From: Dokdonella sp.
Lineage (GTDB): Bacteria; Pseudomonadota; Gammaproteobacteria; Xanthomonadales; Rhodanobacteraceae
NCBI RefSeq assembly: GCF_019634815.1
Contig: NZ_JAHCAP010000007.1
Coordinates: 29,194 to 93,193, forward strand
Length of the DNA: 64,000 nt
Reading direction: 5' to 3'
Part shown: in pieces, positions 16,760 through 40,220 of the stretch
Layout: the number at the start of each line of letters is the position of its first letter
Position numbering within the stretch: the stretch's first letter is position 1
Notes under the pieces: generated by a model
What the model saw: only the letters and a program-made list of their open reading frames with translations
Told to the model about the DNA's origin: nothing
The model's database searches: none
Program-made: the position numbers and the translations under genes

Positions 16760-17827
16760 TCAGTAGTCATAGCCGTCGATGAAGATGAAATCATCGGGCG
16801 TGCGCACACAGTCGTAGGTCACCGTCATCGGATCGCCCGCCTCGACCACTTCGAAGTCGGTCGGACGGATCCCGTACAGCGAGTGTGAATCGATGTCGAT
16901 GTCGGCATCCGACCACTTGTGCGTGGTGAAGGCATCGGCCTCGGCCGTGAGCGGAATCCCGCCGCCGTCGGAAAGAAACATCCCGTACTTCTTGAGCGAG
17001 CGCAGGATCACGCGCACCGCCTCGTTGCTGCTGAATCCGTTGATGTCGAACGAGGCCTTGAGCCGCAGCCGCGAACCATACGGCACGGCGTCGGGATGGG
17101 TGTCGGAGGTCGCGGTGGTGCCGTGCGAGGCCGGATGCACGTACTTGTGCCGCATCATCCGATTGTTGCCGAGGATGAAGCGGATCGCGTGGCCGAAATC
17201 GCCCTGGGTCTGCATCGCCGCCCACACCTCGTCGGCATTGAACAGCAGCGGCGCCACCGGAAATCCCGCACCATCGGCACTGGTGCAATGCTCGCCACGA
17301 CCGTAGCGAGGGTAGACCTTGGTCAGGTCCCAGCGCAGCCCGCAGATCGTGTCGACGCCGCCGGCTCCGGCGGCATTGACGCCGTACGCCTCATAAAGAA
17401 TCTTGCTGCTGTCGTTGACCACCAGCAGATGGCAGTCGTTGTCGCTGGCATCGCAGTCATAGCCCGGTGGATCGGTGCCCTCGATGCCGCCTACCGCGGG
17501 CAATGGAAACGCCATGCCCGGCGCATCGCAATCGGGGCTGTAGTAATCATCGGGATCCGGCCAGGCAACCACCGGCACAGTCGTCGTCGCAGCATTGGCA
17601 TGCAACACGTACATCCCGAAATCGATCTGGAAATCGAAGTTGCGCGTATCGCCCCAACCCGACGAGGAAAACGCAGCCAGATGCGTCATCATCGCCGCCG
17701 AGTTCGGCCGCAGCGGTGCCTGACTGACATCGACGTTCCAGATCGCATTGGGCTGGGTGAAGCGCGGCAAGGGCGCCGCCACCACCGATGATCCGGAGAG
17801 CAAAGCCATCAAGACCAGTGCACGCAT
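16760..17827 (-). CDS. Secreted protein of unknown function with C-terminal DFIFIDGYDY tail
   Basis: GGAGG RBS; signal peptide MRALVLMALLSGSSVVA; conserved-looking core (WNVDVSQAP, DCHLLVV, TSADGAGFPVAPLL, HAIRF, YVHPASH, GSRLRLK, LKKYGMFLSDGG). Confidence 0.8.
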   Translation of the reverse strand: MRALVLMALLSGSSVVAAPLPRFTQPNAIWNVDVSQAPLRPNSAAMMTHLAAFSSSGWGDTRNFDFQIDFGMYVLHANAATTTVPVVAWPDPDDYYSPDCDAPGMAFPLPAVGGIEGTDPPGYDCDASDNDCHLLVVNDSSKILYEAYGVNAAGAGGVDTICGLRWDLTKVYPRYGRGEHCTSADGAGFPVAPLLFNADEVWAAMQTQGDFGHAIRFILGNNRMMRHKYVHPASHGTTATSDTHPDAVPYGSRLRLKASFDINGFSSNEAVRVILRSLKKYGMFLSDGGGIPLTAEADAFTTHKWSDADIDIDSHSLYGIRPTDFEVVEAGDPMTVTYDCVRTPDDFIFIDGYDY

Positions 17828-17897
17828 TTCAGATCCTCCCGGCCACATGATCGACGCCACGCCATCACAAAAACCGTGACGGCTTGCGCAAGCCGAG

Positions 17898-18464
17898 CTA
17901 CCAGACCAGATCGGCCGGCACGTCGTCTTCGCTCGCCGCGTGCGGATCGCACAACAACACCAGCGCCTCGGCATCGATCGCCTGCGCCGCCAGCGCCACT
18001 TCACGAGTCACCAGCAGATAGCGCCCCGCCAGTTGCACCACCGCCAATTCGCCGCCGTTGAGGCGTGGCAATTGCTCGGCGGTGACGTAGATGCGGCGGA
18101 TCTTGTTGTGATGCGGAAAATGTCGCGGAATGTCGGCCTCGGCGACACCTTGCCCGGCGGTCGCGAGCAGGGCCGAGAGTTTTTGCCTGCGTTCGCGTTT
18201 TTCCTTCGCGCGCGCCTCGGCTTCGCGCTGCTCGCGCTCGCGCGTCTCGCGCTCGTCCTTGCCGCGCAAGGCGTAAGCCTTGGCCAGATCGATCTCATCC
18301 CGTGCGTGCGGCGCCTGCGATCTCGGCTTCGCCTGCGGGCGCCCCGGCCCTTGCGGTTTACCGCTTGCGCCCGCTCCTGACTTGGCCGGCCGCGGCTTGG
18401 CTTCGACCTTGGGTGCCGGCTTGAAACCGGCCTTGAGCAACTGATCGCGCAGGGAATCGGACAT
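17898..18464 (-). CDS. DUF2058 (YaiL-like) family protein
   Basis: MSDSLRDQLLKAGF start, EIDLAKAYALR, KIRRIYVT, C-terminal DDVPADLVW. Confidence 0.8.
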   Translation of the reverse strand: MSDSLRDQLLKAGFKPAPKVEAKPRPAKSGAGASGKPQGPGRPQAKPRSQAPHARDEIDLAKAYALRGKDERETREREQREAEARAKEKRERRQKLSALLATAGQGVAEADIPRHFPHHNKIRRIYVTAEQLPRLNGGELAVVQLAGRYLLVTREVALAAQAIDAEALVLLCDPHAASEDDVPADLVW

Positions 18465-18607
18465 GGATTGCAGACTCGGCACAGCCATCACGGGATTGCG
18501 GCGCAAAAGCTTACACGATCAGGGACGGCCACTTTGGAAGTTCCGGAGCCGGCAACCAGGCAGGCAGAAAAGGTCTGCCCCGCAAGCCGCGCTCACGGAC
18601 GAACGCA

Positions 18608-37482: not shown

Positions 37483-38843
37483 GCACGCGCCTCACCGCAT
37501 TGTCGCCACTGGATGGCCGCTACGCCGGGAAAACCGCCGCCCTGCGGCCGATTTTCAGCGAGTTGGGCCTCATGCATCGCCGCGTGCTCGTCGAAGTGCG
37601 CTGGCTCGCCGCGCTCGCCGATGAAGCGGGAATTGGCGAAGTCGCACCGCTGTCGGCACAAGCACGCTCAAGCCTGCTGGCGATCGCCAATGAGTTTTCC
37701 GAAGCCGACGGCGAACGCATCAAGGCAATCGAGGCGACCACCAACCATGACGTCAAGGCGGTGGAATATTTCATCAAGGAAAAGATCTCCTGCCACGCCG
37801 AACTGGCGGCGGCGAAGGAATTCATCCACTTCGCCTGCACCTCCGAAGACATCAACAACCTCGCCTACGCGCTCATGCTGCGCGATGCGCGCGAACAGGT
37901 GCTGCTGCCCGCACTCGACGGCGTGATTGCGAAGCTGCGCGCACTCGCCCACGAACACGCCGCGCTGCCGATGCTCTCGCGCACGCACGGCCAGACCGCC
38001 TCGCCGACCACGCTCGGCAAGGAACTCGCCAATGTCGTCGCCCGCATCGAACGCCAGCGCAAGCAGATCGCTGCCGTCGAACTCACCGGCAAGATCAACG
38101 GCGCGGTCGGCAACTACAACGCGCACGTCATCGCCTGTCCCGAAGTCGACTGGCCCACGTTCGCCAAGCGCTTCGTCGAATCGCTCGGCATCGTGTGGAA
38201 CCCGTACACCACGCAGATCGAACCGCACGACTGCATCGCCGAGATCGGCGACGCGACACGCCGCGCGAACACCATCCTGATCGACTTCGCGCGCGACGTC
38301 TGGGGCTACATTTCGCTCGGCTATTTCCGCCAGACGCTCAAGGTCGGCGAAGTCGGCTCCTCGACGATGCCGCACAAGGTCAACCCGATCGACTTCGAGA
38401 ACGCCGAAGGCAATTTCGGCATCGCCAACGCGCTGTTCGAACATTTCAGCGCGAAGCTGCCGATCAGCCGCTGGCAACGCGACCTCACCGACTCGACCGT
38501 GCTGCGCGCGCTCGGCACCGCGTTCGGCCACACGCAGATCGCGCTCGACGCGCTCGCGCGGGGTCTGGGCAAGCTCAGTGCGAATCCGGATCGTCTCGCC
38601 GCCGACCTCGACGCGAGCTGGGAAGTGCTCGCCGAAGCCGTGCAGACCGTGATGCGCCGCCACGGCCTGCCCGAGCCCTACGAGCAGCTCAAGGCGCTCA
38701 CCCGCGGCCAGGGCATCACGCGCGAGGCGCTGCGTGACTTCGTCGCCAAACTCGATCTGCCGGCGGATGCGAAACAGCGCCTGCTCGCGCTGACACCAAC
38801 GGGCTATACGGGTCTGGCGCAGGCGCTGGCACGGGCCATCTGA
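37479..38843 (+). CDS. purB: Adenylosuccinate lyase
   Basis: [56 protein letters not shown]. Confidence 0.97.
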
Positions 38844-38876
38844 ACGGGCAACGGGCGCGCGGCCCTTCGGTGCGAA

Positions 38877-40220
38877 TCAGGATTCGAAGCCATTGGCGAA
38901 AATCAGATCGCCCGCTCGCTCGATCGCGCCGATGTCGATCGTGCCCGAAGCCGCGCGCGATGTTGCGGCGCCCGGCGCAAGCTGTCCACGCACGGGCTGC
39001 CAGAGCGGTGGAAACAGCGTGCTGGGCACGGCGTATCCCGGAATCGGCTGCGGCGCCGGATCACCGGCATCGACCAGGGCGCTGGCTGCGCTCGGCGTGA
39101 GGTCGAACGCGGCAATATTGGCAAAGCCCGGATCGCTGCCCTGGATCGTCCCGCTCCACTCCGCGGGCAGATAGGTCGCGCCCGACTGCACCCAGTTGTT
39201 GCTGCCGCCGACCTGACGGCCATTGATCCAGCTCGCCTCGACCGTGCGCTCCACGCGCAGGGTGCCGCCGGCGCTCGCATACAGCACGTTGTTGTGGGCC
39301 TCGACCGCCTGGATGCCGTCGAAGATGCGGAATACAGTGACGTCCTGCCCCGAAGTGACGAGGATCGTGTTGTTGACGAAACGCGCGCGTCCGCGGCTTT
39401 CGCCCGAGCCGTCGCCGCCGACACGAATCACCGCATTGAATGCCGGGTTGCTGTGCACGATCACGTTGCCGACCACGTCGGCATCCTCACGCACCAGATC
39501 GGGCGTCCAGAGCGGATCCTGCGTTTCCTCGTCGGGACCGATCAGCTCGAGCTCGTGATAGGCCGCGCCCTCGAACCAGTTGTAGTAAACCTCGCTGCGC
39601 TCGTGCCGGCTCTTGAGCAGGTTGCCGCCGTTGCTGTCGTGAATGTAGTTGTGCTGCATGCGAAACACCGAGCCTGGATGGGCAACCTCGTCGCTCTGGA
39701 TGTAGAGCGCATGCCGGGTGGTCGCGCTGCCAGCATCGAAGACCTCGCTGTATTCCAGCGTGAAGGAACCCGAATCCAGATCGGAGCTGAGGATGCCGTG
39801 ATTGGGGCAGGCATGGATCACCGAATCGCGCACCGTGATGTCGTGGGCATGCACGAACACGCAGCGCGAACTGCCGCCAGTGATCTCGAAGCCTTCCAGC
39901 ACCACGTGGTCGGACAACTCGAACTGCACGGTATTGGTGCCGCCGGCGATATGTGGGCGCTGGCCGCCGACGCGAATACCACGGATCAACAGCGGATTGG
40001 CGGCGGTGCCGCCGGCGTCCTGCGGCACACTGAAGCTCGGATAGGTGGCATTGCCATCGACTTCGACCACATCACCCGGCTGCAGGCTAACCGCATTGAA
40101 CAACGCCGTGGGCGTCGCATAACTACGGGTCGGACCGACCTGCCAGGTCGCAGCAAGGGCAAGTCCGGGCAGGCAAGACACCAGGACGACAGACAGCACA
40201 ATCGGCAGGCGGCGCAGCAT
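38877..40220 (-). CDS. Secreted right-handed beta-helix protein with C-terminal DLIFANGFES tail
   Basis: Signal peptide MLRRLPIVLSVVLVSCLPGLALA; repeated beta-helix strands (HNYIHD, YNWF, GNVIVH, VNNTI, HNNVL); DIGAIE closing motif. Confidence 0.8.
   Translation of the reverse strand: MLRRLPIVLSVVLVSCLPGLALAATWQVGPTRSYATPTALFNAVSLQPGDVVEVDGNATYPSFSVPQDAGGTAANPLLIRGIRVGGQRPHIAGGTNTVQFELSDHVVLEGFEITGGSSRCVFVHAHDITVRDSVIHACPNHGILSSDLDSGSFTLEYSEVFDAGSATTRHALYIQSDEVAHPGSVFRMQHNYIHDSNGGNLLKSRHERSEVYYNWFEGAAYHELELIGPDEETQDPLWTPDLVREDADVVGNVIVHSNPAFNAVIRVGGDGSGESRGRARFVNNTILVTSGQDVTVFRIFDGIQAVEAHNNVLYASAGGTLRVERTVEASWINGRQVGGSNNWVQSGATYLPAEWSGTIQGSDPGFANIAAFDLTPSAASALVDAGDPAPQPIPGYAVPSTLFPPLWQPVRGQLAPGAATSRAASGTIDIGAIERAGDLIFANGFES

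Follow-up and report, generated by a model that had tools for sequence, protein, structure and literature searches.

A short modular tail on diverse exported proteins of Lysobacterales and Acidobacteriota is a candidate localisation tag

Results and Discussion

Two predicted secreted proteins with unrelated cores, encoded in the 64,000-nucleotide stretch of Dokdonella sp. DNA analyzed here (the window), end in the same short peptide, D-x-I-F-x-[DN]-G-[FY]-[DE]. This tail is modular, is found on diverse exported proteins and has no counterpart in the curated libraries searched. Because many unrelated secreted proteins of two bacterial lineages end in it, it sits where relatives bear known surface-anchoring signals and no curated family covers it, the tail is probably an undescribed localisation tag. 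Our fuller reading is tentative: D-x-[ILV]-F-x-[DN]-G-[FY]-[DE] may well be a short, autonomous, lineage-restricted tag, mostly at the extreme C-terminus, on Sec-exported proteins.

The two window tails

Six-frame translation of all 64 kb gave exactly two occurrences of the strict motif, and likewise exactly two of the looser form [ILVF][FY]..G[FY][DE]. In both cases a single residue separates the motif from the stop of an ORF of more than 350 aa that starts with a signal peptide (Table 1), which confirms the positions given in the initial annotation and places both genes on the minus strand. The two strict matches are not due to chance; 200 first-order Markov simulations gave mean counts of 0.00 for the strict and 0.08 for the loose motif, and residue-shuffled window proteins gave 0.11 loose matches. 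The cores had been described as unrelated and they are, with a best BLASTP E of 0.22 and different predicted folds (a right-handed beta-helix for protein 2, mixed alpha/beta for protein 1). Since the codons of the two tails differ and their 3′ flanks are unrelated, the tails did not arise as copies of a repeated DNA element. Folded core and tail adjoin with hardly any spacer. Signal-peptide proteins identified in the window that have no tail are an FkpA-like PPIase and an M23 peptidase, both of periplasmic types. A third tail-less signal-peptide protein, at 33189-34436, has no Pfam match.

Table 1. Coordinates of the tail-bearing genes and their features in the window.
Feature	Position	Strand	Description
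Gene for protein 1	16760..17827	(-)	355 aa, secreted (predicted), uncharacterised core and C-terminal tail, ending in TYDCVRTPDDFIFIDGYDY and stop; from ORF and translation
Protein 1 predicted Sec signal peptide	17777..17827	(-)	MRALVLMALLSGSSVVA, followed by APLP; read from translation
Protein 1 tail	16763..16792	(-)	D-F-I-F-I-D-G-Y-D-Y; motif match 16766-16792; stop 16760-16762
Gene for protein 2	38877..40220	(-)	447 aa, secreted (predicted), right-handed beta-helix and C-terminal tail, ending in DIGAIERAGDLIFANGFES and stop; from ORF and translation
Protein 2 predicted Sec signal peptide	40152..40220	(-)	MLRRLPIVLSVVLVSCLPGLALA, followed by ATWQVGP; read from translation
DIGAIE motif closing the protein 2 beta-helix core	38919..38936	(-)	residues 429-434
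Protein 2 tail	38880..38909	(-)	D-L-I-F-A-N-G-F-E-S; motif match 38883-38909; stop 38877-38879

Protein 1 belongs to no Pfam or NCBIfam family, and has 3078 homologues at E <= 0.001 among 50% representatives, with similarly hydrophobic N-termini. Its AlphaFold2 (AF2) model has a mean pLDDT of 92.1 and no PDB fold match in Foldseek (best E 1.9); pLDDT is low for residues 1-20 and about 47 for residues 351-355, which have no secondary structure. Most of the homologues have no tail and stop at the core (TYDCVRNP-stop). The ending PxDF[ILV][FY]ID[GSR][FY]D[FY]-stop is found only in the closest relatives of protein 1 (P0121, P0122, P0123, P0125, P0127 and P0133), and the canonical tail reappears in the family beyond them in P0174 and P0220.

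Protein 2 has weak Pfam matches to Beta_helix and NosD, and its AF2 model (mean pLDDT 93.6) is matched by Foldseek to PL6/PL9 polysaccharide lyases, GH136 and phage tailspikes, with E down to 1e-7. All 120 relatives examined have a signal-like N-terminal segment with an A-x-A end just before a conserved (A)T[YW]QVGP. The tail is kept in 119 of the 120, down to 51% identity, with conservative changes: the counts along it are I93/L14/V9, F114, a variable residue, D50/N42, G112, F119 and E57/D33/Q22, residue -2 is D in 96, and 116 have zero to two residues after the motif. The tail itself is under protein-level selection. Residues 441-447 have a pLDDT of about 53 and no secondary structure, so that in both models a well-folded core carries an unpacked, low-confidence tail, though disorder in a monomer AF2 model is no proof that the tail is free in vivo.

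Carriers and the anchor slot

Judged by Pfam, with 68 families represented among the 59 tail-bearing proteins (M4, M14, S8, M12B and M36 peptidases, endonuclease I, beta-helix, FG-GAP and BNR among them), the carriers are diverse extracellular-type proteins. Their NCBIfam matches include choice-of-anchor Q (7), B, D and J as well as myxosortase- and rhombosortase-dependent M36 models. In the choice_anch_Q carriers a D[IV]GA.E motif closes the match and the tail starts about five residues past its end; the tail thus occupies the 'anchor slot', where relatives in other lineages bear known sorting signals. The initial annotation had likened DIGAIE, which does lie ahead of the protein 2 tail with G431 and A432 invariant in a 63-sequence alignment, to motifs that precede sorting signals. 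That likeness holds for the choice_anch_Q ends of the other carriers, but protein 2 itself does not match the choice_anch_Q model.

The proposed enrichment of signal peptides was also seen, with 29 of 39 tail ORFs positive compared with 141 of 326 neighbouring ORFs (P = 3e-4), by a crude test that scores 43% of the controls as positive; inspection by eye put the true fraction of tail ORFs higher than this test did. These observations support a modular add-on common to many unrelated proteins, most of them apparently with signal peptides.

The neighbours of tail-bearing genes yielded no cognate gene, machinery or partner, and the only ones to recur have regulatory roles, namely an ECF sigma factor and a TPR Ser/Thr kinase. 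Genes for Pkinase+TPR proteins and PF07638 ECF sigma factors directly adjoin tail-bearing genes in loci L005, L013 and L046, and a TPR-linked cluster occurs at 11 of about 60 loci, in both lineages, as a raw count that takes no account of background kinase density. Short C-terminal peptides are classic ligands of TPR and PDZ domains, and outer-membrane-protein C-termini (YxF) activate DegS. By analogy, the tail could be a signalling or quality-control ligand that reports on exported proteins or regulates their turnover. It would be bound by periplasmic peptide-binding domains, such as those of TPR type in the neighbouring membrane Ser/Thr kinases, which pair with ECF sigma factors, or those of PDZ type in envelope proteases. 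We consider this improbable: TPR similarity artificially inflates the neighbour cluster (its L096 member is a TPR phosphodiesterase), neither window gene adjoins a kinase or ECF sigma gene, and an ECF sigma gene beside genes for secreted proteins may be ordinary regulon structure.

Spread across genomes

A DNA pattern for IFx[DN]GF[DE], restricted to GC-rich codons, gave at least 121 matches in reference genomes; because only the matches listed and GC-rich codons were counted, taxon proportions are those of a biased sample. Among the matches listed, 27 of 34 from Lysobacterales (Dokdonella, Tahibacter and others) are in long ORFs, no more than 10 residues from the stop, which bears out the abundance that the initial annotation gave for Dokdonella-like bacteria. 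Residue -2, which the pattern leaves unspecified, is acidic (D or E) in 30 of the 31 Lysobacterales tails listed and D in 27. The distance from motif to C-terminus varies in this order from zero to five residues, which argues against recognition of the free carboxylate. Among the Acidobacteriota matches listed (mostly Thermoanaerobaculia), 26 of 39 are in a longer C-terminal form of 19 residues with the same core, IFxDGFESGDTSAWSxxxP-stop. By position, 26 of 39 sit 11-20 aa upstream of the stop, at a spacing of exactly 12 in nearly all. At positions the pattern left free, the 28 Acidobacteriota tails listed have W in 28, G in 25 and the terminal P in 21. Of the listed matches from other taxa, 26 of 41 are internal. 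In the window 2 of about 50 genes bear the tail, as do 4 of 139 and 2 of 109 neighbouring ORFs; at about 2-4% of genes, its frequency is on a par with that of a general sorting system.

In L097, L060 and L054 a domain opens with IFADGFESGxLxxWS, and its first 19 residues correspond to the Acidobacteriota tail; Pfam alignments that cover positions 1-40 of CBM_4_9 and Polysacc_lyase, although weak and below threshold (E 0.02-0.24), point the same way. The tail could be a functionless relic of a jelly-roll or carbohydrate-binding domain, once C-terminal and lost by repeated truncation, of which only the first strand or strands would be left. We disfavour this as very unlikely, as independent truncations would not be expected to end at one residue, yet the Acidobacteriota tails mostly stop after the conserved Pro. 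Decay would also be expected of a relic, and instead the tail is kept across the protein 2 family and D at -2 is shared by most of the unrelated Lysobacterales proteins.

About 15% of the Lysobacterales copies listed are internal (L022, L044, L056, L113 and L038), placed at domain junctions and followed by Pro/Gly-rich linkers, and a few Acidobacteriota copies directly follow the signal peptide (L117, L060). The internal copies argue against a strictly C-terminal signal, and together with the post-signal-peptide copies they suggest an autonomous mini-module. They would also suit an end-piece that serves structure or protection and plays no part in sorting, a tiny hairpin capping domain ends and junctions that, for example, shields extracellular C-termini from exoproteases or starts a linker, and that spread as a convenient module boundary. 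The internal copies sit exactly at junctions ahead of Pro/Ala/Gly-rich linkers, G and P are also common past the C-terminal motif, its spacing from the actual end of the protein is variable, and the motif looks like the opening strand of a jelly-roll-like domain of roughly 200 aa (whole in L097, L060 and L054). Nevertheless, we find this explanation rather unlikely, since AF2 packs the tail on neither core, the structural unrelatedness of the cores makes a shared intramolecular role unlikely, and most protein 1 homologues do well with no tail. A generic cap would also not be expected to be confined to two lineages, or to lie in the anchor slot after choice-of-anchor domains.

Proposed role of the tail

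As a localisation tag, the tail would act after Sec export. The folded protein would expose a flexible, acidic, aromatic nine-residue peptide, perhaps folded into a small hairpin at the [DN]-G turn, and a candidate envelope component would bind this peptide non-covalently, without cleaving it, and either move the protein across the outer membrane or retain it at the cell surface or matrix. Unlike LPXTG, PEP-CTERM, GlyGly-CTERM and MYXO-CTERM, the tail cannot insert into the inner membrane, and so the usual sortase-like intramembrane processing cannot apply. The initial annotation had proposed that the tail drives export or surface display, possibly by beta-strand addition to an outer-membrane protein; the first may be so, and the second is speculation. 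Its broader picture of an uncatalogued modular tail in the anchor slot of secreted proteins stands, while its restriction to a C-terminal end does not, as longer, internal and post-signal-peptide forms also exist.

Comparison with known systems

No Pfam or NCBIfam model and no PDB sequence matched the tail, no sorting-signal model in NCBIfam or Pfam did so even at E up to 10, and string searches of the open literature turned up no account of it, in line with the initial annotation. The tail shares its position, at the C-terminus of signal-peptide proteins after choice-of-anchor domains, with established signals, and we looked at whether it is a divergent form of a tripartite signal (PEP-CTERM, GlyGly-CTERM, MYXO-CTERM, IPTL-CTERM or LPXTG), a T9SS domain or an outer-membrane-protein beta-signal. 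This was rejected as extremely unlikely on defining features: the zero to five residues after the motif leave no TM helix and no Arg cluster, as had been annotated, the tail is far too short for a T9SS domain, and the cores are soluble folds rather than barrels with a last residue that is rarely aromatic.

The tripartite signals and their enzymes include LPXTG/sortase, PEP-CTERM/exosortase, GlyGly-CTERM/rhombosortase and MYXO-CTERM/myxosortase (bioRxiv 10.1101/2023.06.07.544157). Like the tail, they are short C-terminal signatures on many unrelated signal-peptide proteins, are lineage-limited with many copies per genome, and follow the same core families (choice-of-anchor Q, B, D and J; M36 peptidases). 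The tail differs in having neither the transmembrane helix nor the Arg-rich cluster, two of the three defining parts, in matching no model, and in that some copies are internal or N-terminal. We know of no cognate enzyme for it.

The T9SS C-terminal domain of Bacteroidota, which directs outer-membrane transit and surface attachment, is likewise a C-terminal tag with no membrane helix on Sec-exported proteins, among them hydrolases and adhesins. It is a folded domain of roughly 70-100 residues with its own Pfam/TIGRFAM models, whereas the tail has 9 aa in Lysobacterales or 19 aa in Acidobacteriota, lacks structure in AF2 and has no matching model. T9SS is not known to be the general system of Lysobacterales or Acidobacteriota.

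Some jelly-roll/CBM/LamG-like domains have an N-terminal strand that begins (I/L)FxDGFESGxLxxW, and the Acidobacteriota tail is collinear with the first 19 residues of such a domain in L097, L060 and L054; the tails have none of the remaining domain and stop at a fixed place. In the Lysobacterales form only seven to nine residues are kept.

Peptide-tag systems such as PTS1/PEX5 TPR, EEVD/Hop TPR, YxF/DegS PDZ and chaperone-usher donor-strand or beta-augmentation are analogies for how the tail might work only. The sequence of the tail is absent from PTS1, EEVD, YxF and donor-strand systems, and its distance to the free carboxylate varies in Lysobacterales, unlike that of PTS1 and PDZ ligands. 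The likeness is that a few residues at or near the C-terminus are exposed on a folded cargo and recognised without cleavage, and for the TPR-read tags it extends to the TPR-containing kinases that recur as neighbours of tail-bearing genes.

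Two proteins in the window share a C-terminal tail

The initial annotation had claimed that two proteins with unrelated cores end in one tail, D-x-I-F-x-[DN]-G-[FY]-[DE]. With the whole window translated in six frames, the strict form of this motif, D.IF.[DN]G[FY][DE], occurs exactly twice, as does a looser form. Both lie one residue ahead of the stop of long ORFs on the minus strand, at the ends of the proteins called here protein 1 and protein 2, and BLASTP found no relationship between the two cores, so the claim held on both counts. Over 200 Markov-1 simulations the number of matches per window was 0.00 for the strict form and 0.08 for the loose form, and residue-shuffled window proteins gave 0.11 loose matches. 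The codons of the two tails differ and their 3′ flanks are unrelated, so the tail is not a repeated DNA element; such an element or a sequencing artefact was ruled out by these differences and by orthologues that stop at the same place.

Protein 2 was modelled by AlphaFold2 from a 63-sequence alignment as a confident right-handed beta-helix (mean pLDDT 93.6), and Pfam Beta_helix and NosD match it weakly, in the core only. The closest solved folds are PL6/PL9 polysaccharide lyases, GH136 lacto-N-biosidases and phage tailspikes, and going by the model protein 2 is probably a secreted enzyme acting on polysaccharide. An LVSC in its signal peptide was considered as a lipoprotein site and rejected, as orthologues have no Cys there and keep A-x-A before (A)T[YW]QVGP. 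Protein 1 matches no Pfam or NCBIfam family and has 3078 homologues at E ≤ 0.001 (50% representatives), its core being a member of a large uncharacterised family. Its model is also confident (pLDDT 92.1) and has no significant fold match in the PDB (best Foldseek E 1.9); the Cys, His, Asp and Arg columns conserved in the family point to a possible enzyme. Besides the signal peptide, the tail is the sole low-confidence part of both models (pLDDT ~53 in protein 2 and ~47 in protein 1), with no secondary structure and no packing against the core.

Features in the window (window positions) and in loci matched by the reference-genome scan (L handles, locus-internal positions)
Feature	Location	Strand	Details
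Protein 1	window 16760-17827	minus	355 aa; N-terminus MRALVLMALLSGSSVVA then APLP; C-terminus TYDCVRTPDDFIFIDGYDY then stop
Protein 2	window 38877-40220	minus	447 aa; N-terminus MLRRLPIVLSVVLVSCLPGLALA then ATWQVGP; C-terminus DIGAIERAGDLIFANGFES then stop
Short-chain dehydrogenase	window 14213-14953	plus	
PhaR-type regulator	window 15411-15914	plus	PHB_acc_N and PHB_acc
Short-chain dehydrogenase	window 15963-16739	plus	convergent with protein 1 gene; 20-bp gap
Tail-less signal-peptide protein	window 33189-34436		
GNAT acetyltransferase fused to DUF7931	window 40265-41332	plus	divergent from protein 2
19-residue tail outside Acidobacteriota	L107:3109-4077	minus	
19-residue tail outside Acidobacteriota	L067:3433-4203	minus	
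RecA, Muribaculaceae MAG	L078:997-2208	plus	C-terminus EEADDIFGDGFDA then stop
Tail-ending ORF	L045:5967-6314	plus	116 aa
ORF of same family	L045:3693-5693		2 kb
Pkinase and TPR_12 kinase	L005:2121-5594		beside tail gene
Pkinase and TPR_12 kinase	L013:5465-8000		beside tail gene
Pkinase and TPR_12 kinase	L046:4651-8000		beside tail gene
Motif-initial domain	L097:1956-2885	plus	~200 residues
Motif-initial domain	L097:5259-6188	plus	~200 residues
Motif-initial domain	L060:983-1897	minus	~200 residues
Motif-initial domain	L054:5786-6607	plus	~200 residues
Internal IFCNGFE, Rhodanobacteraceae MAG	L056:4544-5473	plus	protein of >1700 aa
Cys-flanked internal variant	L029:561-3032		
Cys-flanked internal variant	L055:998-3370		

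Distribution in other genomes

One scan of reference genomes with the DNA pattern ATCTTCNNNRACGGCTTCGA (coding for I-F-x-[DN]-G-F-[DE]) returned at least 121 matches in at least 120 loci. Among the matches listed, 34 were from Lysobacterales (Dokdonella, Tahibacter, Aquimonas, Chiayiivirga, Denitratimonas, and Rhodanobacteraceae and Lysobacteraceae MAGs), 27 of them no more than 10 residues from the stop of a long ORF, in line with the earlier expectation that the tail is common in secreted proteins of Dokdonella-like bacteria. Unassigned Pseudomonadota and Gammaproteobacteria MAGs contributed 7 of the matches listed (5 within 10 residues of the stop), and Acidobacteriota, mostly Thermoanaerobaculia and Holophagae, contributed 39, of which 26 had the stop 11-20 residues further on, at a distance of exactly 12 in nearly every case. 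The remaining 41 came from all other taxa, 26 of them internal.

Residues that the scan pattern does not fix are also conserved among the matches listed: position −2 is D in 27 and E in 3 of 31 Lysobacterales tails, and 28 Acidobacteriota tails continue S-G-D-T-S-A-W-S-x-x-x-P-stop (W in 28/28, G in 25/28, P in 21/28). One core is common to two lineage-specific C-terminal modules, D-x-I-F-x-[DN]-G-F-[DE] plus 0-5 residues in Lysobacterales and I-F-x-D-G-F-E-S-G-D-T-S-A-W-S-x-x-x-P in Acidobacteriota. The 19-residue tail, IFxDGFESGDTSxWSxxx before the stop, also ends a protein of a Polyangiaceae (Myxococcota) MAG and one of an unclassified MAG, and its range therefore extends beyond Acidobacteriota. 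The few near-stop matches listed from other taxa include one, in a Muribaculaceae MAG, that falls in RecA's acidic C-terminus and was rejected as chance; near-stop matches of this kind outside the two lineages are thus not the same feature. Two of ~50 genes in the window carry the tail, and among the matches listed so do 4/139 of the other ORFs in the Lysobacterales loci and 2/109 in the Acidobacteriota loci, suggesting a frequency of ~2-4% of genes, a rough figure from a non-random sample.

Conservation in the two families

The tail is under selection, and in the protein 2 family it ends 119 of 120 relatives, the named ones being from Dokdonella, Tahibacter, Rhodanobacteraceae and 'Xanthomonadales' MAGs; the window is assigned to this group on that basis. 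Counts along the motif are I93/L14/V9, F114, a variable position, D50/N42/H8/S8, G112, F119 and E57/D33/Q22, with D at position −2 in 96 relatives. The last motif residue is E, D or Q, then 0-2 non-conserved residues (116 relatives have 0-2 residues after the motif).

In the protein 1 family most members finish at the end of the core (TYDCVRNP, then stop; alignments to protein 1 run up to residue 342-344), and the form PxDF[ILV][FY]ID[GSR][FY]D[FY] before the stop is limited to the nearest relatives of protein 1, a subfamily that ends in F or Y. Two more distant members have canonical tails (LLQDGFE and VFTNGFEGN, each at the stop). Since most relatives are without it, the tail is a modular add-on to a core that functions on its own. 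Among the homologues of protein 1, P0165 and P0236 have a hydrophobic helix and basic residues at the end in place of the IFxDGF tail, and P0131, P0143, P0154 and P0211 have plain hydrophobic ends. A check of P0165 and P0236 for PEP-CTERM gave no NCBIfam match, so that other anchors in this family are a reading made by eye.

Carrier proteins and the anchor slot

The carriers are diverse: among the matches listed, 59 tail-bearing ORFs match 68 different Pfam families, including FG-GAP, beta-helix, BNR and Ig-like domains, endonuclease I, glucose/sorbosone dehydrogenase and the peptidase families M4, M14, S8, M12B and M36. Their NCBIfam matches include choice-of-anchor Q (at least 7 proteins), B, D and J, as well as the 'myxosortase-dependent' and 'rhombosortase-dependent' M36 peptidase models, families which we take to be named for C-terminal sorting signals that vary across lineages. 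When the last 100 residues were re-scanned in four carriers (L026, L030, L072 and L040), choice_anch_Q (NF041518) matched at E 3e-19 to 9e-7 and ended at profile position 56-57 of 58, only 4-5 residues before the tail. The tail therefore occupies the anchor slot, the position after the choice-of-anchor domain where other lineages carry known sorting signals. The DIGAIE motif that the initial annotation had likened to those preceding such signals is present in protein 2, and protein 2 itself has no match to NF041518 even at E up to 10.

Carriers are also enriched in signal peptides, as had been anticipated. In the scanned loci, among the matches listed, a crude test was positive for 29/39 complete tail ORFs vs 141/326 neighbouring ORFs (Fisher P = 3e-4), and by eye a plausible signal peptide can be seen in several of the ORFs that scored negative or were called at a late offset, hidden by a long spurious upstream frame. 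The window also has three complete signal-peptide proteins that lack the tail: an FkpA-like PPIase and an M23 peptidase, both of periplasmic type, and a third with no Pfam match. In one scanned locus, L045, a short tail-ending ORF follows a longer ORF of the same family, and the pair may be a frameshifted or split gene.

Internal and N-terminal copies

About 15% of the Lysobacterales matches listed are internal (L022, L044, L056, L113 and L038), at domain junctions where Pro/Ala/Gly-rich linkers and another domain follow. The matches listed also place the 19-residue form directly behind the signal peptide in some Acidobacteriota and in a few other phyla, as in L117, where a linker and a beta-helix follow. 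Copies in these places show the element to be an autonomous mini-module, with a preference for the C-terminus but no need of it. It could also be that the tail is a structural or protective end-cap or a junction element, an explanation we consider unlikely; even so, a structural cap would still define a widespread uncatalogued sequence module. By eye, the internal copy in L056 precedes Rhs/YD-repeat-looking sequences, and a Cys-flanked internal variant, [IL]FCSGFE[SE]G[ED]DGxCG, occurs in neighbouring ORFs of two other loci.

A domain of ~200 residues in L097, L060 and L054 opens with IFADGFESGxLxxWS and closes with FDxFExRR. Its Pfam matches, at N-terminal profile positions, fall below gathering scores (CBM_4_9 at E 0.023 and 0.24, Polysacc_lyase at E 0.037). 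It may represent an uncatalogued domain of jelly-roll-like type, with a first hairpin equivalent to the Acidobacteriota tail, and we regard a correspondence of the tail to the first jelly-roll strands as a lead, not a result. That the tail is a functionless relic of a lost jelly-roll domain is very improbable, being contradicted by its fixed stop position and conservation.

Gene neighbours

Clustering the neighbours of tail genes in search of machinery brought up, among the loci listed, ECF sigma factor and TPR kinase genes only. Several Lysobacterales loci, those in the table and also L030, L052, L081, L083 and L100, have a membrane Ser/Thr kinase with long TPR stretches (Pfam Pkinase and TPR_12) next to the tail gene, frequently together with a PF07638 ECF sigma factor. 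The TPR-linked cluster is found in 11 of ~60 loci among the matches listed, a count partly driven by TPR similarity and inflated, since at least one member, in L096, is a TPR phosphodiesterase. Both gene types adjoin tail genes in L005, L013 and L046, which would fit a tail that serves as a ligand for periplasmic peptide-binding sensors or proteases, a role we judge quite unlikely.

In the window, paralogous short-chain dehydrogenases, both probably acetoacetyl-CoA-reductase-like, flank the PhaR-type gene near protein 1. Near protein 2, the stop-to-stop frame of the GNAT/DUF7931 gene overlaps a spurious upstream extension of the protein 2 ORF.

Possible role of the tail

Our preferred reading, plausible if somewhat short of probable, is that the tail is a localisation tag acting after Sec export. 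An envelope component would bind the tail, a nonapeptide that is exposed, acidic and aromatic, by non-covalent contacts, and would then either move the folded protein through the outer membrane or keep it at the surface or in the matrix. The peptide might form a hairpin around [DN]-G, as this is a favoured tight-turn pair. It is possible, if doubtful, that such a localisation tag defines a new class among bacterial protein-localisation signals, served by dedicated machinery and marking a categorically new pathway. A tag of 9 residues (19 in Thermoanaerobaculia) and no membrane helix would then be read by an envelope receptor through beta-augmentation or peptide-groove binding, candidates being an outer-membrane protein, a periplasmic TPR protein or a jelly-roll domain without its first strands. 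In Dokdonella-group Lysobacterales such a tag would direct ~2-4% of the proteome to export or surface display, and its longer form would do the same in Acidobacteriota.

To our knowledge, how folded periplasmic proteins are chosen for the surface or medium is largely unexplained in most Gram-negatives outside Bacteroidota, and we know of no linear signal found for type II secretion. A tail with these properties, carried by peptidases, nucleases, lyases and adhesin-like proteins in two distant phyla and filling the slot used elsewhere by PEP-CTERM, MYXO-CTERM and GlyGly-CTERM, would give a concrete and tractable handle on this question. It would also improve the annotation of thousands of 'hypothetical' secreted proteins in soil and wastewater metagenomes, and so short a portable tag for display or secretion could be of practical use. 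The small C-terminal sorting signals that we know of all depend on a membrane helix together with a basic cluster, and on a processing enzyme that is intramembrane or membrane-bound.

Comparison with known C-terminal signals

The tail is absent from the curated libraries searched, with no Pfam or NCBIfam model covering it in whole proteins or in isolation. Neither window protein matched NCBIfam, the 25 most-matched NCBIfam families of the 59 carriers (matches listed) include no sorting-signal model, and isolated tails gave no sorting-signal match in Pfam and NCBIfam at E up to 10, the results being two sub-threshold ones, GCX_COOH at E 0.02 for one Tahibacter tail and CBM_4_9 for an internal copy. 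A PDB sequence search with the 19-aa tail returned chance-level HasA matches alone (E 0.34), and in the searchable literature we found no description of the tail, the string matches being noise or unrelated papers. As a sequence feature the tail is genuine and widespread, and nothing in these libraries or in this literature describes it.

The tripartite class (LPXTG, PEP-CTERM, GlyGly-CTERM, MYXO-CTERM, IPTL-CTERM and others) combines a motif, a hydrophobic helix and a basic cluster (bioRxiv 10.1101/2023.06.07.544157). Like these signals, the tail is a near-C-terminal signature on many unrelated signal-peptide proteins per genome. Unlike them, it has no hydrophobic transmembrane segment, with 0-5 residues (Lysobacterales) or 12 polar residues (Acidobacteriota) after the motif, and no C-terminal basic (Arg) cluster, ending instead in acidic residues or G/P. 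The T9SS C-terminal domain is a folded unit of roughly 70-100 residues with its own tail models, whereas the tail is 9-19 residues long, matches no model and is coil in AF2. The initial annotation had already set the tail apart from characterised signals, citing the missing helix and basic cluster and its small size beside the T9SS domain, and the comparison agrees with it on each point. A divergent form of a known signal is hardly credible, as the defining features fail.

The outer-membrane-protein beta-signal, recognised in BamA substrates, is the last strand of a beta-barrel with a C-terminal aromatic residue. The window cores are a beta-helix and a soluble alpha/beta fold, and being soluble they set the tail apart from such a signal; in relatives of protein 2 the last motif residue is E, D or Q, and the protein 1 subfamily has a terminal F or Y. 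Type I secretion substrates are without an N-terminal signal peptide, whereas both window proteins and most carriers have signal-peptide-like N-termini, and the tail is therefore not a type I secretion signal. By analogy, the tail would work like a C-terminal sorting or retention tag, yet it departs from the membership features of every known class.
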